This document shows, piece after piece, positions 100-18,935 of a DNA stretch of 22,213 nucleotides. The notes beneath the pieces are model-generated. The model searched no databases and had not been told where the DNA came from. It saw nothing but the letters and a program-made list of their open reading frames with translations. This stretch comes from a virus: the UHGV virus genome UHGV-0117651; one strand, written 5' to 3'. Position 1 is the first letter of the stretch. Every line of letters starts with the position of its first letter. The translations under genes and the position numbers were made by a program.

Positions 100-2814
100 A
101 TGGGGCAGTTTGGTGACTCCATCCAGCGAACGCAGGGGGCGATCAAAAATCTCGAGCGTCAGGCGCGTTCATTTGAGCGCGCCCGCGACGCTGTCAGTAA
201 AGCGGATGCGGGTATCGTGAAAGCACGACGCCAGCTTAACGCCCTTAATCAGTTACAACGCACGGGTACAGTGCTCAGCGAAAAACAACAAAAGCTGATG
301 CAGCAGTTAAGCAGCCGGCTTGAACGCCTGAATGAATCGCGCACACGGGAAATTCAGAAAATGCGGGAACTTGGCGGAGAGCTGAAACGCCACGGCATTT
401 CCCTGACAGGCAGCGATAACACCATCCAGCAGGCCATCAGACGCACCGAACAGTACAACAACCAGCTTGAACGCGAACGGCAGGCGCTTGCGCGTGTAAC
501 GCGGGCGCGTGAGCGGTATTCGCGCGCGCAGGAAACCGCGGGAAAACTGAAAACAGGTGGTGCGCTGGCAATTGGTGCTGCAGCGGCTGGCGGCTATGCT
601 GCCGGGCGTTTTTTGCAGCCTGCGATCGGGTTCGGCAAAGAGATGTCCCGCGTTCAGGCACTGACGCGAATCGACAAAAACAGCCCGCAGTTTAAGGCGC
701 TGCGTGAGCAGGCGTTAAAACTTGGTTCTGAAACACAGTTTACTGCGAGTGATGCCGCCAGTGGGCAGAGCTTTCTGGCAATGGCTGGTTTTACTCCGCA
801 GGCCATTCAGGCCGCATTGCCCGGTGTTCTTAATATGGCGCTGGCAGGTGGCGTCGAACTCGGCGAGACGGCTGATATAGGCTCCAATATCCTCACACAG
901 TTCAACCTGACAGCCGATCAAATGGACCGGGTTGGCGATACGCTGACAGCAGCATTCACCCGGACCAATACTGATTTACGCGCGCTGGGCGAAACCATGA
1001 AGTATACCGGTCCGGTTGCCGCAAAACTTGGTATCAGTCTTGAAGAAGCGGCGGCCATGGCCGGGATGCTTGCCAATAATGGTCTTCGCGGAAGCGATGC
1101 TGGTACGGCCATGCGCGCAAGTCTGTCCCGCCTTGCATCACCGCCAAAAGCTGCGGCTGATGCACTGAAAGAGCTGGGGGTGTCAGTTGCTGACGCCAGA
1201 GGCAAAATGCGCCCGATGGAGGATGTGCTGCTTGATCTCTATAAGGCGACACAAAAATACGGACAGGTGGACCAGGTCTCCTTCTTCAAGGACATCGCCG
1301 GAGAAGAGGCGTTCGTTGGTTTGCAGACGCTTGTTGCGGCGGCTGGTTCAGGAGAACTGCAAAAACTGACCAGAGAATTGCAGGGGGCAAGGGGAGAGGC
1401 CGATCGCGTTGCAAAAGTAATGGCCGATAATCTTGATGGAGACCTGAAAAATCTCGACAGCGCATGGGAAGGTCTTCGTATTCGCATCAGTGATCTGGTT
1501 GACGGTCCGCTGCGTTCTGTCACGCAGTGGCTCACGCGGGTGCTTGAAAAAATCACCTCGCTGGCGCAGGCCCATCCGGTACTGACGCGCCAGCTACTGA
1601 TAGCAGGCGGTGCGTTGCTGGCAATGACTGCAACGATTGGCTCGTTGTCGCTGGTTATTGGGGTGCTTTACGGGAAGCTGGCCACCTTGCGTCTTACCCG
1701 GTCAATGAATGTCATCAGGGTGTTGCCTGCGCTGTGGGGAATGGTGACGGGTTCTGTTTCTTTGCTGGGAGGAGCTATCGGGGCGCTGTTCAGTCCGGTT
1801 AGTCTTATCGTGGCTGCGCTTGCCGGCGCTGCCGTTCTTATCTGGAAATACTGGGATCCCATCAGGGCATTTTTTGCCGGGGTGTTCAGCGGGATTATGG
1901 AAAGGCTGAACCCGTTGCGTGAAACCTTTGAACGGTTTGGCCCTGTTTTTGACGCAATCGGAAGCGGGATCAGCCAGGTGTTTAACTGGTTTAAATCGCT
2001 GCTGTCACCGATGGAGTCCAGCAAGGAAACGCTGGATAAATGTACCAGTGCTGGCGAGATATTCGGTAACGTTCTTGGTGGCGCGTTACAGCTTGTTCTG
2101 ACGCCTGCAAAAATGTTGCTGGATACGCTGGCGTGGATACTTGAAAAACTCGGTGTTCTTCCGGATGAAGCGGAAAGGGCGAGAAAGAAAATCGAAGACG
2201 CACAGCGTGCGGCCATTCTTCAGGACAAGGTTGCCTTACTTCAAGGGGACCTGGCGAAAATCAATCCGCCGAAGCCTGTGGAAAATGGCAATGGCACCGG
2301 AGGTGATAAACCCAAAGACAACAAACCGCTCACAGACAGCAATACCGGGACGCTACGCAGACTCAGCAAAATTGCTGATAACACAGGTAAGCTGGTTGAG
2401 GAGACGAAAAAACGCATTGGCCCCGGCGATATTGTCTTTAAAAACCTGCCCCGAGCACTTGCTGTTCGTGGGGAGTGGCAGGAGCGGAAGATTGCGCAGG
2501 CCAGTAAGCCTGCCCCCGCAATTAATATCACACCCGTGGTCCCGGCTCCGCTGCCTCCGGCGCTGGTCCCTGCTGTTGCGGCCAGCTCCCGCCCGGTGGC
2601 GGAGGCCATACGATCTCCAGTGGCATCAGTTCCTGTAACTTCCCGTAACCGGGAGCCTGTTGCCTCCGGATTTGGTGGTGAAATTCATGTTCATCTGCAT
2701 AACGTTGTTACACAGAATCCCCGCGAACTGGCGAAACTGGTCGGTGAAATGGTCAGGGCAGAGATGGAACGGCGCGCCCGTGCCGGGCGTGGCAGTTTTT
2801 ACGATAAAGATTGA
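100..2814 (+). CDS. T: Phage tail tape measure protein (P2 gpT-like). The reading frame is open from window position 1, so the true start may lie upstream or overlap an E' frameshift product.
   Basis: 904-aa ORF, Ala/Gly-rich and coiled-coil-like at the N-terminus with a hydrophobic central segment, typical of tape measure proteins. It sits immediately upstream of a gpU homolog. A GGAG ribosome-binding site for the next gene lies at its 3' end. Family assignment is by eye. Confidence 0.8.
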   Translation: MGQFGDSIQRTQGAIKNLERQARSFERARDAVSKADAGIVKARRQLNALNQLQRTGTVLSEKQQKLMQQLSSRLERLNESRTREIQKMRELGGELKRHGISLTGSDNTIQQAIRRTEQYNNQLERERQALARVTRARERYSRAQETAGKLKTGGALAIGAAAAGGYAAGRFLQPAIGFGKEMSRVQALTRIDKNSPQFKALREQALKLGSETQFTASDAASGQSFLAMAGFTPQAIQAALPGVLNMALAGGVELGETADIGSNILTQFNLTADQMDRVGDTLTAAFTRTNTDLRALGETMKYTGPVAAKLGISLEEAAAMAGMLANNGLRGSDAGTAMRASLSRLASPPKAAADALKELGVSVADARGKMRPMEDVLLDLYKATQKYGQVDQVSFFKDIAGEEAFVGLQTLVAAAGSGELQKLTRELQGARGEADRVAKVMADNLDGDLKNLDSAWEGLRIRISDLVDGPLRSVTQWLTRVLEKITSLAQAHPVLTRQLLIAGGALLAMTATIGSLSLVIGVLYGKLATLRLTRSMNVIRVLPALWGMVTGSVSLLGGAIGALFSPVSLIVAALAGAAVLIWKYWDPIRAFFAGVFSGIMERLNPLRETFERFGPVFDAIGSGISQVFNWFKSLLSPMESSKETLDKCTSAGEIFGNVLGGALQLVLTPAKMLLDTLAWILEKLGVLPDEAERARKKIEDAQRAAILQDKVALLQGDLAKINPPKPVENGNGTGGDKPKDNKPLTDSNTGTLRRLSKIADNTGKLVEETKKRIGPGDIVFKNLPRALAVRGEWQERKIAQASKPAPAINITPVVPAPLPPALVPAVAASSRPVAEAIRSPVASVPVTSRNREPVASGFGGEIHVHLHNVVTQNPRELAKLVGEMVRAEMERRARAGRGSFYDKD

Positions 2815-2820
2815 GGAGTC

Positions 2821-3315
2821 ATGGCCATGATGATGATCTATGGCATGTTTGTTTTTGAGCTGCGCACGTTGCCGCATCAGCAGTTACAGCAAAACAAAAG
2901 CTGGCGGCACGTGAAAAATGAACGCGTTAACCGTTCAGCAAGCTGGCAGTATATCGGGGCAGGCGATGATCGCATCGTTCTTTCTGGTGTGCTTTATCCT
3001 GAAATTACAGGTGGCGAAGTGTCGCTTTCGTTGCTGACCTCGCAGGCATATACAGGACGCCCCTGGCCTCTGATTGATGGTGTCGGGCAGATTTACGGCA
3101 TGTATGTCCTGACCGGAACGAATACGACCCGCTCCGAGTTTGATCGCTACGGTAAGGCGAAAAAGATAGAATTTTCACTGACTCTTGAACGCTGTGATGA
3201 GGATTTGCGGGAGCGCCTGCAATCCTCATCGTTCAGTGATATGCTGTCCGGCTTCAAAGATAAGGTCACATCATCCCTTAACAGCGCGGCCAGCTCCGTT
3301 AAAGGGCTGTTTTGA
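2821..3315 (+). CDS. U: Phage tail protein gpU (P2 family)
   Basis: 164-aa ORF starting MAMMMIYGMFVFELRTLPHQ, which resembles the P2 gpU N-terminus as recalled from memory. GGAG lies 7 nt upstream of the ATG. It directly follows the tape measure gene as in P2. Confidence 0.8.
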   Translation: MAMMMIYGMFVFELRTLPHQQLQQNKSWRHVKNERVNRSASWQYIGAGDDRIVLSGVLYPEITGGEVSLSLLTSQAYTGRPWPLIDGVGQIYGMYVLTGTNTTRSEFDRYGKAKKIEFSLTLERCDEDLRERLQSSSFSDMLSGFKDKVTSSLNSAASSVKGLF

Positions 3316-3322
3316 TTAACGC

Positions 3323-3352
3323 AAAACCGCTAATGGTCAGATTAGCGGTTTT
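3323..3352. terminator. Bidirectional intrinsic terminator between gpU (+) and the invertase (-)
   Basis: Perfect 12-bp inverted repeat AAAACCGCTAAT / ATTAGCGGTTTT with a 6-nt loop. A-run on the 5' side and T-run on the 3' side, so it forms a hairpin followed by a U-tract on both strands. Confidence 0.6.
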
Positions 3353-3941
3353 CATTTTCCTGAGTCTGCCTGGTTGTTTCTTCAGCCTGTATATCGCCTA
3401 CAGGGTGATAACGATAAATCGTCGATATGCCGATGTCGTAAATGATCGCCAGTTGTTTCCTGTCATGACCGTTTTTAATCAGCCTCGCTATTTGCTCGTG
3501 TTGTTCTTTTGTCAACTTCGGGCGACGTCCGCCAATGCGTCCTTGTGCGCGTGCTGCTGCCAGCCCGGCCAGTGTACGCTCTACAATTAATTCACGTTCC
3601 ATTTCGGCTAAAGCCCCCATGACGTGAAAAAAGAAACGCCCCATGGGTGTTGATGTGTCAATGCTGTCCGTCAGACTACGGAAATTAACACCTTTTTCCC
3701 GCAATTCCTCAATAAGCGTGATCAGGTGTTTCATACTTCTGCCCAGTCTGTCCAGCTTCCAGACAACCAGCGTATCTCCTTCTGATAGCGTTCTGAGCAG
3801 TTTTTTCAATCCCGGTCTGGCTGATTTCGTTCCGCTGATTTTATCTTCAAAAATCAGTTCACATCCTGCGCAGTTCAGTGCATTGCGTTGTAAATCCGTG
3901 TTCTGGTCATTTGTTGACACACGAATATAGCCAATTTGCAT
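3342..3941 (-). CDS. Site-specific DNA invertase, serine recombinase of the Hin/Gin/Cin/Pin family
   Basis: Translation from the ATG at 3941 gives MQIGYIRVSTNDQNTDLQRNAL...VVWKLDRLGRSMKHLI...GRFFFHVMGALAEMERELIVERTLAGLAAARAQGRIGGRRPKL, with a C-terminal helix-turn-helix. This closely matches the Hin/Gin sequences as I recall them. AGAGGA lies 8 nt upstream of the ATG. The ORF track start at 4136 is an upstream extension. Confidence 0.9.
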   Translation of the reverse strand: MQIGYIRVSTNDQNTDLQRNALNCAGCELIFEDKISGTKSARPGLKKLLRTLSEGDTLVVWKLDRLGRSMKHLITLIEELREKGVNFRSLTDSIDTSTPMGRFFFHVMGALAEMERELIVERTLAGLAAARAQGRIGGRRPKLTKEQHEQIARLIKNGHDRKQLAIIYDIGISTIYRYHPVGDIQAEETTRQTQENENR

Positions 3942-3955
3942 AAAAAACATCCTCT

Positions 3956-4519
3956 TTGTTTCGTGAAAAATACATAGTTGGTATAGGTAGGGATAAAAAC
4001 GAAAACGTTGGTTTGGGGGAAGGTTCTGCGCTGCCTGTTGGTGTGCCCGTTCCGTGGCCCTCAGCAACACCACCAACGGGCTGGCTGAAATGTAACGGCG
4101 CAGCATTTTCTTCTGAAATGTATCCCGGACTGGCAAAGGCTTACCCCACCAATAAATTACCGGATTTACGGGGTGAATTTATTCGTGGCTGGGATGATGG
4201 ACGTAGTGCGGATGCGGGGAGAACAATATTATCCGCTCAAGGTGATGCCATACGTAATATCTATGGTGAGTTCAAGACTGTAAACACTGAAAATTATTCA
4301 ATATGGGAATCAGTAGGCTCGTTTAAGGGGGCAGTGGTGCCTTTAAATTCCTCAACAAACAATAGTTATTTCTCCTTAGTCAGAAGTATGGTGACAGAAA
4401 GGACAGACGGCGCTGTTTACCCAAAAGTGATTGGCCTTGATGCTTCAAAAATTGTTCCAACTGCAAACGAAAACCGCCCACGCAACATTGCGTTTAATTA
4501 CATCGTAAGGGCAGCATGA
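3956..4519 (+). CDS. Tail-fibre C-terminal variable cassette 1 (phage tail-collar domain). No canonical start; the frame is open through the crossover site, as expected for a promoterless segment.
   Basis: Encodes GEGSALPVGVPVPWPSATPPTGWLKCNGAAFSSEMYPGLAKAYPTNKLPDLRGEFIRGWDDGR, which fits the tail-collar motif pattern (P-x-GWL-x-C-x-G, LPDLRG). It ends ...PRNIAFNYIVRAA then stop, a typical fibre terminus. Confidence 0.65.
   Translation: MFREKYIVGIGRDKNENVGLGEGSALPVGVPVPWPSATPPTGWLKCNGAAFSSEMYPGLAKAYPTNKLPDLRGEFIRGWDDGRSADAGRTILSAQGDAIRNIYGEFKTVNTENYSIWESVGSFKGAVVPLNSSTNNSYFSLVRSMVTERTDGAVYPKVIGLDASKIVPTANENRPRNIAFNYIVRAA
3996..4021 (+). other. Candidate invertase crossover site 1 (gix/hix-like), at the 5' edge of cassette 1
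   Basis: AAAACGAAAACG-TT-GGTTTGGGGGAA, with imperfect dyad symmetry AAACG/TT/GGTTT. It resembles the gix sequence as I recall it. The right half and central dinucleotide recur unchanged at 4513-4538 and 5028-5053. Confidence 0.5.
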
Positions 4520-4538
4520 AAACGTTGGTTTGGGGGAA
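4513..4538 (+). other. Candidate invertase crossover site 2
   Basis: GAAAACGTTGGTTTGGGGGAAGG, identical to the site 1 core, placed immediately after the stop codon of cassette 1. Confidence 0.5.
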
Positions 4539-5033
4539 GGTTCTGCGCTGCCTGTTGGTGTGCCCGTTCCATGGCCCTCAGCCACACCACCAACGGGCTG
4601 GCTGAAATGCAATGGTGCAGCATTTTCTTCTGAAATGTACCCCAAACTGGCAAAAGCCTACCCCGCAAATAAATTACCGGATTTACGGGGAGAATTTATT
4701 CGCGGCTGGGATGATGGGCGCGGGGTGGATGCTGGCCGCGCTTTGCTTAATTGGCAGCCACACACAATTTTGGATCATGCACACTATATGGAATTATGGA
4801 CCGGGAACGGACTTGCCGTGGAAAGTGCACGGGAAGGATTAAACCCTGGAATACTGGCTACATACGGGGACGGGGGAATAGTTAAAACAGACGAACCCGG
4901 TTTAAGGGTGCCTTCCTCACTACGAGCCATTAGCTCTCGTAATGTAAAACGGTTTGGTGAAATTAGTGGAAATGTAGGTACAGAAACTCGCCCTCGCAAC
5001 GTTGCATTCAATTACATCGTAAGAGCCGCATGA
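4530..5033 (+). CDS. Tail-fibre C-terminal variable cassette 2 (tail-collar domain)
   Basis: The first ~60 residues are near-identical to cassette 1 and the remainder diverges. It ends ...ETRPRNVAFNYIVRAA then stop. Confidence 0.65.
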   Translation: MGEGSALPVGVPVPWPSATPPTGWLKCNGAAFSSEMYPKLAKAYPANKLPDLRGEFIRGWDDGRGVDAGRALLNWQPHTILDHAHYMELWTGNGLAVESAREGLNPGILATYGDGGIVKTDEPGLRVPSSLRAISSRNVKRFGEISGNVGTETRPRNVAFNYIVRAA

Positions 5034-5053
5034 AAACGTTGGTTTGGGGGAAG
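5028..5053 (+). other. Candidate invertase crossover site 3
   Basis: The same conserved block, immediately after the stop codon of cassette 2. Confidence 0.5.
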
Positions 5054-5604
5054 GCTCTGCACTGCCCGTTGGTGTGCCTGTTCCATGGCCCTCAGCCACA
5101 CCACCAACGGGCTGGCTGAAATGTAACGGTGCAGCATTTTCTTCTGAAATGTATCCCGGACTGGCAAAGGCTTACCCCACAAATAAATTACCGGATTTAC
5201 GCGGAGAATTTATCCGTGGCTGGGATGATGGGCGAGGAATTGATGCGGCACGCGCTTTATTGAGCATTCAAAACGGGATGTTGGAAAAACACCGCCATAT
5301 TGTTGTAGCTAACGATGGATATGACACAAAAGATGAATGGGAGTTGGCTACGATTTTCAAAAAAACATATACACAAGGCAGGGGGCTTGATGCCACAAAT
5401 ACAGGAGGGAGTTTGATTCCATCATCGCCACGACGTCAGGTAACGCTACATCGGTATACAGATAAATTCCCAGACCGAACTGGTTGTTGGTCAGTGCGCC
5501 TGACAGTCGAAACTTACAGCTCAGTCTGCCACCCCGTGTCAGCAGGGAGACTGCGTCATCCACCGGATGCATCAGGGACCAAGTTTTATTGCTCTGCTTG
5601 GTAA
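5044..5604 (+). CDS. Tail-fibre C-terminal variable cassette 3 (tail-collar domain). The 3' end is atypical or degenerate and overlaps the antisense ORF on the - strand.
   Basis: Conserved N-terminal block, then a divergent region that keeps a Q...H-x-H pattern (SIQNGMLEKHRHIVV). It lacks the NYIVRAA terminus of cassettes 1 and 2. Confidence 0.45.
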   Translation: MGEGSALPVGVPVPWPSATPPTGWLKCNGAAFSSEMYPGLAKAYPTNKLPDLRGEFIRGWDDGRGIDAARALLSIQNGMLEKHRHIVVANDGYDTKDEWELATIFKKTYTQGRGLDATNTGGSLIPSSPRRQVTLHRYTDKFPDRTGCWSVRLTVETYSSVCHPVSAGRLRHPPDASGTKFYCSAW

Positions 5605-6560
5605 CCTTAAACACACCATCTTCCAGCGCAACACTGCCGCCGGTGATGGTCCAGCCCTGCGCAGCAGCCTCTCCGGCTGTCGGCAGCAGGGAGACTGTAC
5701 GAACGGATGTGTCACCATCAGACGGCCCCGATGGAGTGTCGCCGCCGGGCGAGGGTTTGATTTCCGGTGCGGTACCGCTGATGAAGGCGCTGGTTCGACC
5801 AACTGCGTTCAGAATAGCGGTTGCCAGGCGATCCGAAATAATGCCCCTGCGCGCCCATGAACTGAAATGTGTCGGACGATTTGACGATACCCAATTACCA
5901 TTACTACGGGATTGCGCGCCGTAATAACCTGCATCAGCAATATCCGGGTCTTCTGCCGGTAAGTTGGTGGGCGTGTTGTTGCCGTTACCGTCGGTCATGA
6001 ACGGCACAAAGAAAACGTTGTCGCTCTCCCTGTTTTTGTACGCGCCGTAGACGGAGTCATACTGTGTGCCGTATGTGTTTTTCCAGTAATACGTCGTGTC
6101 GCCACAAATCCACGGTATAACTGCAGCACTGCCGCCATGGCACTGCGCGTTAAATCCGGAAAGGTCAGTACGGAACTGCTTCAGCATGGCCGTGAACAGG
6201 TCCGGTTGCTGTGCGTAGGTGGCAGCGCTCATGTCAAATTCGCCCTGCATCCAGCACACCGCCAGCAACACATTTTTCGGGTTCTTCTGTAATGCCGCTT
6301 TGGTGCGTGCGATCAGGTCCTGATATAACGGCTTACCCGCACCCCAGCGCGCCGAATCCTGGCTGGCCCCCGTGGTCGTACTGAATGTTCCCTCCGCGCC
6401 CTGAGTGAATGCCGAACCACCACGACAGCATGGTACCAGCAGGATCCCCGCGTTATTCGGGATATACGGGAGTAGTTTTTTGGCAATATGAAGTCCCTGT
6501 CCCACACAGCCGTACTGACCTTTGCTCAGGTCCGCCTTCGGATGATTCAGCGTACTCATA
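5357..6560 (-). CDS. SGNH/SASA-family hydrolase-like protein (sialate O-acetylesterase-like), possibly a receptor-modifying or receptor-binding tail accessory protein. The C-terminal ~80 codons overlap cassette 3 on the other strand, so the true 3' end is uncertain.
   Basis: Translation from the ATG at 6560 begins MSTLNHPKADLSKGQYGCVGQG. Blocks LLVPCCRGGSAF, VCWMQGEFD and THFSSWARRGI resemble the conserved blocks of the sialate O-acetylesterase domain as I recall them, but the expected GQSN serine motif is not obvious. The start ATG overlaps the stop of truncated gpL as ATGA. Confidence 0.45.
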
Positions 6561-6828
6561 CCGGAACATCGGCCAGCGTCTGATGGCCAGCCGCCTGCTG
6601 TTCCTGCTGCCACGCTTCCAGTTCGCGGGTAACGTGAGCCACGGCCCCAGTGGCGGTATGCAGCAGGCGGGAGGTGGTCACGCGGCCCGGCAGTCGTACC
6701 GCCAGACGCAGCTCGCGCAGCACAATATCCGGCCAGAATGCACCTGCTGAAATGCGAGTGTCGCCATCATCGGTATCGGTGATGTCGTCCTCTGCGGGTC
6801 CTGGTTCAGTTCTGGCAACCATACTCAT
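6556..6828 (-). pseudogene. L: Capsid completion protein gpL, N-terminal ~90 codons only (truncated)
   Basis: MSMVARTE...AFWPDIVLRELRLAVRLPGR...EAWQQEQQAAGHQTLADVPV resembles the gpL N-terminus (FFFPDIDPKRVRERMRLEQ...REQKIAAGFTRLADVPADD, recalled from memory). The ORF stops right after LADVPV, where P2 gpL as I recall it continues for ~80 more residues. GGAG lies upstream of the ATG at 6828. Confidence 0.6.
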
Positions 6829-6842
6829 GGAGTTCACTCCTG

Positions 6843-6907
6843 AAAAAAAATCGGGCGGTGGGTGCGCGGTGTAAACGGTCACGGAGTCAAACCGGAACAC
6901 CGCGCAC
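6843..6907 (-). terminator. Hairpin plus U8 tract between gpM and gpL' (possible attenuator or terminator)
   Basis: 10-bp inverted repeat GTGCGCGGTG (6862-6871) / CACCGCGCAC (6898-6907). On the - strand it is followed ~11 nt later by a run of eight T. The spacing is not optimal for a terminator. Confidence 0.3.
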
Positions 6908-6931
6908 GCCGCCCGCTGACGGGGTCAGTCG

Positions 6932-7732
6932 TTAACCGCGCTTCGCCTTCTGCGACGCGGTGGTTTTTCGTGTTGCAGGCTTCTGCGTTGTCTTTTTACT
7001 TTTGCTGCTTTCGTCCTGCGTCTGCTGTGCGCTGGCGTCTTCTGGTGCGGCTGCGGAATCGGCTTTTTTCAGGGCGCGGGAAAGGGTTGCAATCTCGCGT
7101 TTCACACCTGCGTTCGGGTTCAGGTGCATCGCTTCGCGCAGCAGCTTCAGTGATGAGGCCATGTTGTCTGCATCGGTCAGGCCACGACGGGCAAAGGCAC
7201 ACGCCTTGCATAATTTGGCGCGCACTTCGTCCGGCATGTCCTGGTTGGCGACAATTTCCCAAAGTGTGTCCAGTGGTTCGATAAAGGCGGATAAATCCGC
7301 GTCGGCATCCGTCCCGGCCTGCGTCAGTACCGGGTTGCAGATTTCTTCGGTCAGTACCGTGGCAGCAGTACGGCCAAAGTTATCCGGCATGATGAGGTTG
7401 TGACGGACCACATATGCACCAATACGCAGCGCCAGCGGAAGATCGCCGCAGTCAATCGCCCACACCATCAGCGTGGCAATTACTTCGTCCTGTTGCCCGC
7501 CGTCAGTCTCCAGCGTTCCCTCAATCCAGCCGGAAAAGTCCGGCAACAACTCTTTTTTGATGGCGGCTTTCGCGCTTCTGGCCTGTACGCCCTTTAGCCT
7601 GGCCTGTGCCAGACGCAGACGATACAGCACCTCTTCATGCGCGGTACGCGCGGCGTGGTCCACACCTTCATTCGCCCGGCCTGCGCGCTGTGCCATCACG
7701 TTCTGCCAGTGTTGTTGTGCAGGAGTAATCAT
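6932..7732 (-). CDS. M: Terminase endonuclease (small) subunit gpM
   Basis: 266-aa ORF in the expected position after the major capsid gene. GGAGAG ribosome-binding site. Lys/Thr-rich C-terminal tail. Assigned by synteny and size to the P2 gpM family. Confidence 0.8.
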   Translation of the reverse strand: MITPAQQHWQNVMAQRAGRANEGVDHAARTAHEEVLYRLRLAQARLKGVQARSAKAAIKKELLPDFSGWIEGTLETDGGQQDEVIATLMVWAIDCGDLPLALRIGAYVVRHNLIMPDNFGRTAATVLTEEICNPVLTQAGTDADADLSAFIEPLDTLWEIVANQDMPDEVRAKLCKACAFARRGLTDADNMASSLKLLREAMHLNPNAGVKREIATLSRALKKADSAAAPEDASAQQTQDESSKSKKTTQKPATRKTTASQKAKRG

Positions 7733-7777
7733 TTTTTCTCTCCGTTACAGGCGGGCATGATGCCCGCCGTGAGTTGA

Positions 7778-8830
7778 TTAGCTGTCGGCGAACTTCAGGC
7801 CAGTGATCATCGCGCACTTGCCATAGTCTTCAACGACATAAGCGTCATTGATGGACTGGTAGGTGGCGATGCGGTTGTATTCCGGCTCGTCTTTCATCAG
7901 GCGACGCATTGAACCTTTCTGCCAGTAAATCGACAGGTTGTTGAACGAGGTGATAAGCATCGTTGCATCCGGGAAGAACGGCGCAAGGAACACGCCCAGC
8001 CCGCCAATGGTGCGCGATGACAGGATGAGCTGCCCGGCAAGTAATTCCGCATTGGGATTCTGGCCGCTGATGCTGTTCAGCACGGGCAGACGCAGCGAGT
8101 TAAACAGGTTGCGCCCCATAATCACCGCGAGGTCGTCAGCTTCCTTGTGCCATTCATCCAGCAGGGATGAGCGCGCATCCTGTACCAGAGCATCGGCATT
8201 CGCATACTTACCCGCGTGCGCCACAGTGTTGTCCATGTTGCGGGAGGTCAGCGTCACGTCATTCATTACGCGCTCGCTGGCATCGGTTCTGATGTGCTCC
8301 AGCCAGCCCACGTTAACGTCCTGAAGCAGCTTGTTGGTGTGAAAATCAGACTCGTAGGCGTGGGATGTGCCGTTAAAGCCAATCATGATGCGATCAAGCG
8401 CTACCTGCCGGGCGATCTGTGTACTGATACGGGACTGAAAATCGCTGTGGGCCGCCCAGGTATCAAGCTGTGGGTACGAAATAAAGGTATCGTAGTTCAC
8501 CTGTTCGCACTGGTACTGACGAGACTTCATATCGATCACGTTATTCGGGTTACGGCGTTTGATGCCGTCATAACTGCTATTCGTGCGCGCAATTGGCCCG
8601 GTGGTGTCCAGGAGGATTTTTTCGCCTTTCTGGTCGGTCACGCCGATCACGTTAATTCTTTTCGTAAATTCGGTACTTTCCTTTGAGGCGTTTTCAAAAC
8701 GCTGCTGCACCGCGGGTTCCACGGTAAATCGCGATACCAGTGCAGATACCGGGATATTGTTAAGCGACGCCTGCTGCGCCATATAGCAACCCAGCTTGTT
8801 GCGGGTAATATCTGACATCACCAGATTCAT
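7778..8830 (-). CDS. N: Major capsid protein gpN
   Basis: 350-aa ORF. Several segments (TVEPAVQQ, IMIGFNGTS, VGWLEHIR, VIMGRNLF, MLITSFNNLSIYWQ, YVVEDYG) resemble P2 gpN as I recall it. A hairpin GGCGGGCAT-G-ATGCCCGCC lies between N and M. Confidence 0.85.
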   Translation of the reverse strand: MNLVMSDITRNKLGCYMAQQASLNNIPVSALVSRFTVEPAVQQRFENASKESTEFTKRINVIGVTDQKGEKILLDTTGPIARTNSSYDGIKRRNPNNVIDMKSRQYQCEQVNYDTFISYPQLDTWAAHSDFQSRISTQIARQVALDRIMIGFNGTSHAYESDFHTNKLLQDVNVGWLEHIRTDASERVMNDVTLTSRNMDNTVAHAGKYANADALVQDARSSLLDEWHKEADDLAVIMGRNLFNSLRLPVLNSISGQNPNAELLAGQLILSSRTIGGLGVFLAPFFPDATMLITSFNNLSIYWQKGSMRRLMKDEPEYNRIATYQSINDAYVVEDYGKCAMITGLKFADS

Positions 8831-13763: not shown

Positions 13764-14075
13764 TTACTCAGGAAATAACGCCCGGATATTCCCAGCCATC
13801 TGGCTGGTTATCTTAGCCACTGGTGCAGACTGTGCTTCAAACTTTTTTGAGCTGATTTGTGTCACAGGTAAAATCTCATCATCAGCCCATGCGGTCAGTC
13901 GGTAAGCCTCTGCCGGATTCGTCTTCAGAAGTGCCAGCCCGGCCAGAAAAGCCACGCGTTGGCCGCTTTTGCGGGCTTCTGGTGTAAGGCTGTCCAGCCA
14001 GGCGCATGCTTCTCCTTCGTTCTTGACGGCAGCTGGCTTCAGATAGAAACTTATTCTTCTGGTTGGTGTCGTCAT
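13764..14075 (-). CDS. parR: Plasmid partition adaptor ParR (StbB-like)
   Basis: 103-aa ORF immediately after parM with a 4-nt gap. Its N-terminal region (ISFYLKPA...LDSLTPEARKSGQRVAFLAGLALL) resembles R1 ParR as I recall it. Confidence 0.7.
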   Translation of the reverse strand: MTTPTRRISFYLKPAAVKNEGEACAWLDSLTPEARKSGQRVAFLAGLALLKTNPAEAYRLTAWADDEILPVTQISSKKFEAQSAPVAKITSQMAGNIRALFPE

Positions 14076-14079
14076 TGGT

Positions 14080-15039
14080 TTACTCCTTGTTCATTGCGTA
14101 CAGCCCATTAACCAGAGCAAACTGTGGCACCCCGTCCGCGATGAAAGTCGCATTAACTCCGCAGGCTTCGCGGATAGCGGGTGCCACAATCTCCGCCCCG
14201 CCACCGACAACCATCACCCGCCCGTAACCGGAAAAACCCGCCAGCGCGCGGATCACTCGTTGTTTCAGTGTCTCCTCCTTTTCACGAATAACCGCCATCA
14301 GGCTGTTGTAATGCGCGTCATTGTGAATGTGCTGGCGCAGCCAGGCTTCATCGTGACGGTGCTCAATAATGGTATTGGCGATGTGGTGACTGGTACGCAT
14401 ACCGTTAGTGGCCATCACCGACAGCACGGCATCAGCCATCAGGGAAACGCCTACGTGTGGATCGCAAAACACCTGGCTGATACCTGCCAGCTGCCCCTGA
14501 ACCTTTGCCACATCCAGCGTGGTTCCGCCCAAATCCACAATCAGCAGGGATTCAAACGGACTCATGTCAGCCAGTGCCTTAAAGCCAGCCGGAATGGATT
14601 CAGGCATAACCCGCACGTTACGGATAGTGAATGCTTCGCCGTTCTGGTACTCCACCGGGCGCATAACGTTCGCTTTTTTGCGGTTGATGTTGGCTATGTC
14701 CGGCTGTGCGTTTGTGTCGAAATACTCGCTCAGTGGCAGGGTGACAACCACATCCACCTCCTGTGGCGTGATGCCTGATTTGACCAGCGCGTGATGAATG
14801 GCAATGACATTCACATCACTGTACTGGTATTGCGTGTCGGTCGTCTGGACAAAGCGATCGCTGACCGGATCAAAACCATAGCGCACGCCATCAAGCATGT
14901 AGTTCGCGGGCTGCGTGCCACCGAACGGCGCAGACCATTCCGACTTGAAGCTGTTCGGGCTGATGGCGTTGCGGCGTTCGCCGTTCTCAGTCCATGCCAG
15001 CTTGATGTTGGTGGAGCCGTCGTCAATACAAATTTTCAT
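14080..15039 (-). CDS. parM: Actin-like plasmid segregation ATPase ParM (StbA)
   Basis: MKICIDDGSTNIKLAW, ISPNSFK, YSDVNVIAIHHAL, LLIVDLGGTTLDV, GFSGYGRVMVVGGGAEI and LVNGLYAM closely match the R1 ParM motifs as I recall them. AAGGA ribosome-binding site. Confidence 0.9.
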   Translation of the reverse strand: MKICIDDGSTNIKLAWTENGERRNAISPNSFKSEWSAPFGGTQPANYMLDGVRYGFDPVSDRFVQTTDTQYQYSDVNVIAIHHALVKSGITPQEVDVVVTLPLSEYFDTNAQPDIANINRKKANVMRPVEYQNGEAFTIRNVRVMPESIPAGFKALADMSPFESLLIVDLGGTTLDVAKVQGQLAGISQVFCDPHVGVSLMADAVLSVMATNGMRTSHHIANTIIEHRHDEAWLRQHIHNDAHYNSLMAVIREKEETLKQRVIRALAGFSGYGRVMVVGGGAEIVAPAIREACGVNATFIADGVPQFALVNGLYAMNKE

Positions 15040-18613: not shown

Positions 18614-18935
18614 GGTGTGGCCCCTTGTGTAGTAAGTTGTGAAAACTCACCATCCAGAGCTGCGAAACTGTGGGTGGCGAGACGTACGAGGTTCGCAGTA
18701 CCGGCTACACAAGAACCCGGCCCGACCGAAGTCGGCCCCGTACGCCCCGCCATAATTCTGACGCGAAAAAAACGTGGCAATACAGTACGCACAAAAAAAC
18801 CGCTGGCGCGGTTGTGCGCTTGTGTAGTCAGCAGGCTGCGAAACCCGACACCCGTTTTGTGAGGTGCAGCGGAAATGTAACCTGACTGATTGCGACATGG
18901 CAAGCGGTTTTTTTGTGTGTGCATGTTCTGGTTTC
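18614..18935 (-). promoter_or_regulatory. Structured noncoding leader inside the early operon, with three copies of a bipartite motif (CTTGTGTAG + GCTGCGAA); the middle copy is inverted
   Basis: Copy 1 at 18623-18661 (direct), copy 2 at 18690-18714 (inverted, GGTTCGCAG...GCTACACAAG) and copy 3 at 18819-18844 (direct). A GC-rich hairpin lies at 18716-18740. Copy 1 overlaps the ribosome-binding site of the 76-aa ORF. Confidence 0.45.

Follow-up and report, generated by a model that had tools for sequence, protein, structure and literature searches.

A truncated nanS-p gene between two probable deletion scars in a P88-like Escherichia coli prophage

Background

Cryptic and defective prophages of Escherichia coli decay by deletion of lysis and structural genes. 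Deletional decay of this kind, with truncated genes left at the scars, is commonplace and already known. Among the cargo genes of E. coli prophages are those encoding NanS-p, relatives of the chromosomal esterase NanS. Catalysis by NanS relies on Ser19 and His301, with the oxyanion hole formed by Gln18 and no catalytic Asp involved (PMC9063846). For the NanS-p proteins of Stx phages, a three-domain architecture that includes a lectin-like C-terminal domain has been described (PMC10462455). In phage phi24B, the full-length homologue, gp84, is virion-associated, and its DUF1737 domain is the capsid-binding domain (bioRxiv 10.64898/2026.04.10.717836).

We analysed a window of 22,213 nucleotides (the whole stretch of virus genome UHGV-0117651), in which a long esterase-like ORF overlaps the end of a short head-completion gene L. 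This feature is very probably a pair of deletion scars in a defective E. coli prophage of the P88-like type (Xuanwuvirus, with a P2-type head). With equally high confidence, we regard the 400-aa ORF as an ordinary nanS-p pseudogene remnant, and not as a new receptor-binding protein. The original prediction for this locus gave coordinates, a truncated gpL, esterase-like motifs and a missing GQSN motif that are all borne out by translation and Pfam searches. It overlooked that the esterase ORF is truncated as well, and at both ends; the rest of the observation was accurate.

Results

A P88-like prophage lacking 8 kb

The window aligns in collinear pieces, at 99.1% identity, with an intact P88-like prophage of E. 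coli AR_0013 (locus L002, used below as the reference for deletion coordinates). Phages 520873, P88 and P884B11 match it at 93-94% identity over some 78-82% of its length. Both the collinear gene order and the high DNA identity place the window among the P88-like phages (Xuanwuvirus). The aligned span is 30.4 kb in AR_0013 and 22.1 kb in the window, that is, approximately 8 kb are missing. The features of the window are listed in Table 1. Its first 77 nt, ahead of the tape-measure gene, match nothing related.

Table 1. Features of the window, in order of position
Feature	Position	Strand	Basis or remark
Tape measure T	100-2814	+	Window gene order
gpU	2821-3315	+	Window gene order
Hin/Cin-type serine invertase	3342-3941	-	Pfam Resolvase and HTH_7
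Tail-fibre cassette ORF	3956-4519	+	Pfam Collar; direct orientation
Tail-fibre cassette ORF	4530-5033	+	Pfam Collar; direct orientation
Tail-fibre C-terminal cassette 3 (Collar domain)	5032-5424	+	100% identical to AR_0013 cassette
400-aa ORF	5357-6559	-	SASA/NanS matches; contains GGS, WMQGEFD, HFSSW
Out-of-context ORF tail, 21 codons (MESNSLLYLWHQAPCLVYMFF) and stop	5357-5421	-	Antisense of tail-fibre cassette 3
Junction 2	5422-5424		3-nt microhomology TCA (+ strand); esterase fragment joined to tail-fibre cassette 3
nanS-p-type internal fragment, codons 138-516 of 626	5422-6560	-	Alignment to AR_0013 protein
gpL', truncated head-completion gene	6556-6828	-	90-aa ORF; Pfam Phage_GPL; alignment to AR_0013 gpL
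Junction 1	6560/6561		gpL (6561 upward) joined to esterase (6560 downward); three-way sequence comparison
Small terminase M, capsid N, scaffold O	Beyond gpL'	-	Window gene order
Large terminase P, portal Q; then replication and early region	After O	+ (P, Q)	Window gene order

In AR_0013, one strand carries the sheath and tube genes, E, T and U, followed by the invertase and a single cassette. The opposite strand carries G, H, I, J, W, V, S and R, then a gene for a 626-aa 'DUF6645 domain-containing protein', and LysC. Beyond LysC come a DUF2570 (LysB-like) gene, an M15 endolysin, the holin, X, L (164 aa), M, N and O, and then P and Q. A second relative, vB_EcoM-705R2, likewise has the order L-X-holin-endolysin-LysB-LysC-esterase. 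From the window, X, the holin, the endolysin, LysB/LysC, R, S, V, W, J, I, H and G are absent, and no complete set of lysis, baseplate and tail-fibre genes is present. It had been proposed that the esterase-like ORF occupies the place of X-Y-K-R-S-V-W-J-I-H-G-F-E. This is right for the missing lysis and tail genes, but not for F and E. The sheath and tube genes, E, T and U of this lineage are found on the other side of the invertase, and contigs carrying both junctions still have the sheath, the tube and a full-length T there.

Without lysis, baseplate and tail-fibre genes, the prophage is therefore considered defective. It would be unable to lyse its host or to build baseplates and tail fibres, and would have no complete head-completion protein.

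An internal fragment of a NanS-p-type esterase

The 626-aa protein of AR_0013 has three Pfam domains, DUF1737 (residues 4-53), SASA (75-271) and DUF6645 (477-587). It matches the solved structure of NanS/YjhS (3PT5) over residues 69-388 (E 1e-122) and the C-terminal domain of NanS-p (6YP6) over residues 431-623 (E 4e-30). This domain order, together with the two structural matches, identifies it as a NanS-p-type prophage 9-O-acetyl-sialate esterase. Its GQSN motif, at residues 80-83, aligns to AGQSN of NanS. Counting on the alignment, the 3PT5 chain is offset by about 11 residues from the native numbering; with this offset, Ser19 falls on the S in GQSN, and the H in SHFSS corresponds to His301.

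The ORF of the window starts with MSTLNHPKADLSKGQYG... and is identical, over 379 of 379 residues, to residues 138-516 of this protein; the DNA identity is 99.7%. The final 21 residues, MESNSLLYLWHQAPCLVYMFF, are not found in the AR_0013 esterase, which goes on as TGTGNPFLMSFF... at this point. The proposal that the ORF is sialate-O-acetylesterase-like held up when the HMM check was run: the homologous SASA, or SGNH type II, esterase domain is found, with partial coverage (positions 58-157 of the 226 of the SASA model, E 1.6e-11). The match to 3PT5 is also partial (E 7e-88), covering chain residues 87-332 only, as is that to 6YP6 (chain residues 13-107 only, E 7e-9). DUF6645, near the C-terminus of the ORF, scores 15.4 bits, which is below the Pfam cutoff of 27.

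What is retained comprises the WMQGEFD block, about 250 residues of the esterase domain, the first 86 or so residues of the lectin-like domain, and the catalytic His (NanS His301, motif R-x-x-H-F-S-S), RPTHFSS in the fragment aligning to SHFSS of 3PT5. The 400-aa ORF contains no GQSN, with its nucleophile Ser and oxyanion Gln. Also missing from the fragment are the first beta-strand of the esterase fold and, according to Pfam, the DUF1737 domain, which the intact relative has at residues 4-53. The lectin-like jelly-roll C-terminal domain is incomplete, 110 of its approximately 195 residues (517-626) being gone. Apart from the truncations, no inactivating mutation is present in the fragment. 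Such intactness, although expected of a recent event, is a point against decay of the 400-aa ORF itself.

The lack of GQSN, which had been noted earlier, thus has a simple origin: the motif lies at residues 80-83, the fragment begins at residue 138, and a nanS-p-type gene of 626 codons has lost its initial 137 by deletion. A catalytically altered binding module had been suggested, but the loss reflects this deletion and not evolution of the protein. A search for a Ser-His-Asp triad had also been recommended; it is moot, as NanS enzymes use a Ser-His dyad (PMC9063846). As judged from the residues retained, no esterase activity on Neu5,9Ac2 is expected in the absence of the Ser nucleophile. If a product is made at all, it should be catalytically dead, and is probably unstable or misfolded. 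Even a role in association with the virion would need a part that is missing, since DUF1737 is gone.

A truncated gpL and an accidental overlap at junction 1

The gpL' translation is 90 aa long (MSMVARTEPG...QTLADVPV*). Native gpL codons 1-89 occupy 6562-6828, and junction 1 falls inside codon 90. This codon (GTA, Val) and the TGA stop result from out-of-frame reading across the junction into esterase sequence. Compared to the 164-aa gpL of AR_0013, gpL' is identical at 89 of 89 residues and is then truncated; the nearest intact gpL runs on, after these 89 residues, as ...LADVPAPVINGES. In terms of the Phage_GPL model (PF05926), gpL' covers positions 1-64 of 139 (E 7e-18), against positions 1-138 for the intact AR_0013 protein, and hence does not contain a full-length GPL domain. 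Since the nearest intact gpL has 164 aa with an identical first 89 residues, the truncation is real, and the truncation point that had been placed at about codon 90 is now located at 89/90. We also considered whether gpL might be naturally short in this lineage; this was rejected, as the relatives have 164 aa.

At junction 1, gpL sequence extends up to ...GATGTTCCGG, and esterase sequence starts from TATGAGTACG.... It is a blunt join of gpL codon 89 to the base that precedes the internal Met138 of the esterase. No exact microhomology was found at this junction, only an imperfect match of 8 out of 10 (CCGGAACATC / CCTGCACATC), displaced by 1 nt. Relative to AR_0013, the corresponding deletion spans L002 13153-15246 (2,094 bp) and comprises gpL codons 90-164, X, the holin, the M15 endolysin, the DUF2570/LysB-like gene, LysC and esterase codons 1-137.

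The same junction produces the ATGA overlap at 6556-6559 (ATG at 6559-6557, TGA at 6558-6556, within ...CCGGTATGAGT...), which had been read as a translational fusion of the two genes. The overlap exists, but the meaning given to it does not stand. The ATG of the ORF is the esterase gene's own Met138 codon, and the gpL frame reads those bases as G|TA TGA; the apparent fusion is therefore an accident of the join. No Shine-Dalgarno sequence was found upstream of this ATG, and no sigma-70-like promoter on either strand of positions 5000-7000. In principle, the overlap might nonetheless back coupled translation of an ORF that stays open for as many as 400 codons.

Junction 2 and the tail-fibre cassettes

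Junction 2 joins esterase codon 516 to the antisense of cassette 3, which is truncated at its 3' end and stops 96 nt short of the stop of the AR_0013 cassette. A listed ORF (5044-5604) extends from cassette 3 into the antisense of the esterase fragment. Relative to AR_0013, the deletion spans L002 5832-12013, or about 6,182 bp; lost with it are the final 96 nt of the cassette, the genes G, H, I, J, W, V, S and R, and codons 517-626 of the esterase.

The three cassettes of the window, each with a Collar domain, are in direct orientation on the + strand (approximately 3952-5424). Their heads form 276-nt direct repeats, at 3952, 4469 and 4983, and the window contains no inverted copy of this head. 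In AR_0013, an inverted copy is found in gene H (L002 6795-7008), within the segment deleted here. As the remaining heads are all direct, the invertase switch has lost its substrate.

Given that the invertase and the repeated cassettes directly adjoin junction 2, and that the number of cassettes differs between contigs (3 versus 4), we considered whether the resident Hin/Cin-type invertase could have made the deletions at cassette crossover sites, by programmed rearrangement and not by random decay. The only candidate crossover region is the 276-nt head common to the cassettes and gene H. Junction 2, however, lies approximately 390 nt into cassette 3, outside the conserved head, and its partner breakpoint is inside the esterase gene, with 3 nt in common; at junction 1, no cassette or repeat is involved. 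One 18-nt inverted repeat, 78% complementary, does span junction 2, but by our own estimate some ten inverted 9-mer seeds are expected in 2.4 kb, and we regard the match as due to chance. Because the breakpoints are located outside the conserved heads, we attribute the deletions to illegitimate recombination. The invertase was rejected as their author, such an origin appearing highly improbable.

The proximity of the esterase fragment to the tail-fibre cassettes had suggested a receptor-modifying or receptor-binding function. In intact relatives, the esterase gene follows lysC and lies approximately 6 kb from the cassette; the adjacency results from the 6.2-kb deletion, and the functional argument drawn from it falls. 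The corresponding proposal would give the truncated esterase a working role even without its Ser: coupled in translation to gpL', it would bind glycans or modify receptors as an accessory alongside the tail-fibre cassettes. This proposal could draw on the ATGA overlap and the 400-codon open frame, on what is kept (the WMQGEFD block, the catalytic His and some 86 residues at the start of the lectin-like domain), and on the virion association of the full-length homologue in phi24B (bioRxiv 10.64898/2026.04.10.717836). Yet the fragment does not differ from the corresponding stretch of the full-length gene (100% identity) and shows no signs of adaptation; beta-strand 1, the GQS residues, the capsid-docking DUF1737 and 110 of the approximately 195 jelly-roll residues are gone, and the C-terminus consists of 21 antisense-derived residues. 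With gene H, the baseplate genes and the lysis genes deleted, the element encodes no tail-fibre protein or baseplate with which the fragment could act, and the cassettes are its neighbours only as an outcome of deletion. We therefore judge an accessory role very unlikely. Hardly more credible is a variant in which a fragment reinitiated at the ATGA would persist as a soluble binder of O-acetylated sialoglycans and be of use to the lysogen, as a lectin-like or dominant-negative module without catalytic activity; if true, it could account for the presence of the element in many gut samples.

Recurrence of the double-deletion allele

The window is identical to the start of ENA contig ERZ651857 NODE_2 (310 kb, approximately 4.8x coverage) over the 16.5 kb that were compared. 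Ten contigs carry the exact 400-aa ORF and at least 24 the exact 90-aa gpL', and wherever the sequence extends far enough, the esterase fragment is always next to gpL'. The carrier contigs come from different studies, samples, assemblers and collections (ENA, Logan), and NCBI is also among the listed database sources of gpL'. They are not all alike. M and N are additionally deleted on three of them (L004, L014 and L017), gpO is rearranged or disrupted on two (L006 and L016), and there are four cassettes instead of three on L004 and L008. The presence of identical junctions on contigs that differ elsewhere indicates that the double-deletion allele is genuine, inherited and still decaying.

These data also bear on whether the junctions could be assembly chimeras of a low-coverage metagenome contig. 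The window does make up the first 22 kb of a SPAdes-style metagenome contig at approximately 4.8x, and its unmatched first 77 nt equal a common k-mer length. Independent chimeras would nevertheless have to yield identical junction-spanning proteins on many contigs (at least 24 for gpL'), from varied studies and assemblers and in structurally distinct variants, and the probability of an artefact is practically negligible.

Among 5,426 complete E. coli genomes, none covered 80% or more of window positions 5000-7000, and the exact 35-nt pattern of junction 1 had no match in a set with one genome per GTDB species. The allele is thus absent from these complete-genome and GTDB sets, and present in metagenome, Logan and draft assemblies.

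Discussion

The simplest history of the locus involves two deletions in an otherwise ordinary prophage. In the ancestor, the late operon would have included, immediately downstream of lysC, an intact nanS-p-type gene for a protein with DUF1737 at its N-terminus, a SASA/SGNH type II 9-O-acetyl-sialate esterase domain in the middle and a lectin-like domain at its C-terminus. Two deletions by illegitimate recombination would then have followed, one of 2.1 kb (blunt join) and one of 6.2 kb (3-nt microhomology). The former would have taken the 3' half of gpL, X, the holin, endolysin and spanin-like genes and the 5' end of the esterase gene; the latter, the 3' end of the esterase gene, R, S, V, W, J, I, H, G and the end of one tail-fibre cassette. 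The leftover would be an internal esterase fragment (residues 138-516), with an accidental start at an internal Met overlapping the out-of-frame stop of gpL', and with 21 antisense-derived codons as its end. Translation of this fragment, if any, would proceed by termination-reinitiation at the ATGA, without a Shine-Dalgarno sequence.

For annotation, the appropriate labels are 'pseudogene fragment of nanS-p' for the ORF, 'truncated' for the gpL ORF and 'defective' for the prophage; the import is otherwise small. The case illustrates how two genes brought together by a deletion may pass for a translationally coupled pair, and how this may lead to a spurious functional connection with the tail-fibre cassettes next to them. 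Many gut-metagenome samples contain the deletion allele, which makes a convenient marker of the lineage. Full-length nanS-p, for its part, emerges as regular cargo of P88-like myovirus prophages, placed directly after the lysis cassette, in parallel with the lysis-adjacent nanS-p of Stx lambdoid phages.

Comparison with known systems

The fragment is a piece of a NanS-p family member, and three hallmarks of the family are missing from it, namely the nucleophilic Ser, DUF1737 and a C-terminal domain of full length. Its closest counterpart is WP_021521823.1, the DUF6645-domain/SASA-family esterase of AR_0013, with which it shares residues 138-516, the prophage type, the strand and the operon. 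Unlike that protein, the copy in the window lacks residues 1-137 and 517-626, carries 21 foreign residues at its C-terminus and has lost flanking genes on both sides. The 90% identity cluster containing the fragment and WP_021521823.1 has 1,558 members; those that were read are mostly E. coli proteins of 618-626 aa annotated as DUF1737, SASA-family or DUF6645.

The NanS-p genes of Stx lambdoid phages (933W L0105; phi24B vb_24B_21/gp84; yjhS) share about 86% DNA identity with the fragment along the 1.15 kb that it retains, and their products have the same DUF1737-SASA-lectin-like architecture as the intact AR_0013 relative, whereas the window copy is a mere fragment without the catalytic Ser. 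In Stx1a phages, a 617-aa nanS-p/yjhS gene adjoins the holin. In both lambdoid and P88-like phages, nanS-p sits beside the lysis cassette of the late operon, but its exact position differs: upstream of holin S and downstream of stx in the former, downstream of lysC in the latter. The chromosomal NanS (YjhS, 3PT5) has in common with the fragment the SGNH type II domain and the catalytic His. It is, however, a complete single-domain enzyme with Ser19, while the fragment lacks the equivalent of chain residues 1-86, including Gln18 and Ser19.

Finally, as in the cryptic prophages of E. coli, the window shows loss of lysis, baseplate and tail-fibre genes and truncated genes at the scars, and its sister contigs have lost still more. 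It differs from them in no notable respect and is a typical example of such prophages.

Tail-fibre cassettes and further damage in sister contigs

Further features of the window are collected in the table below. The constant part of the tail-fibre gene H, together with its inverted site, has been deleted from the window, and what is left of the locus, an invertase and its cassettes, is an orphaned tail-fibre switching system. The cassettes have conserved heads of 276 nt (at 3952, 4469 and 4983). Cassette number varies, from one in AR_0013, the E. coli strain with an intact P88-like prophage, to three in the window and four in the sister contigs L004 and L008; related cassettes are carried by P1-like plasmid prophages.

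Further features of the window
Feature	Position	Strand	Remarks
Hin/Cin-type invertase and three Collar-domain C-terminal tail-fibre cassettes	3342-5424		Cassettes in direct orientation
GC-rich hairpin followed by A+T8	6843-6916	(-)	Between M and the gpL Shine-Dalgarno sequence
ParM/StbA-like (319 aa) and Plasmid_stab_B (103 aa) genes	13764-15039	(-)	Between portal gene Q and replication gene A
C4 antisense RNA (83 bits) and isrK Hfq-binding RNA (62 bits), adjoining	18670-18867	(-)	Rfam matches

Two groups of sister contigs, L004/L014/L017 and L006/L016, have both junctions and, in addition, further independent damage. In one variant, a 1.8-kb deletion (equivalent to window 6939-8746) has removed M and N; in another, a segment is inverted within gpO.

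At the left end, all matches to the relatives' tape-measure genes begin at position 78, and for positions 1-77 no match was found in the tape-measure gene of any relative or among complete E. coli genomes. These 77 nt translate in frame into T, reading ...DRFGQSGTPAELFADYGLTAENIAENARRLMGQ, which resembles a transketolase-type C-terminus. The first base of the window is also the first base of a SPAdes-style contig, and assemblers commonly use k-mers of 77 nt, so this stretch is likely to be either an artefact of the contig end or the product of another rearrangement. T is full-length (935 aa) in the sister contigs, with the tube and sheath before it.

Features of the late and early regions

The hairpin upstream of gpL is strong (-43.5 kcal/mol, z = -4.6) and resembles an intrinsic terminator or attenuator within the late operon. 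The aligned part (up to 6900) is the same in AR_0013, which suggests that the hairpin normally occurs in the P88-like phage group. The C4 and isrK matches sit in the prophage early region.

The interval between Q and A looks like a variable cargo slot, occupied here by a plasmid-type partition module within an integrated prophage. The same pair of genes is present in the relative vB_EcoM-705R2, whereas AR_0013 has an AAA ATPase and a Dam methylase at this position instead.
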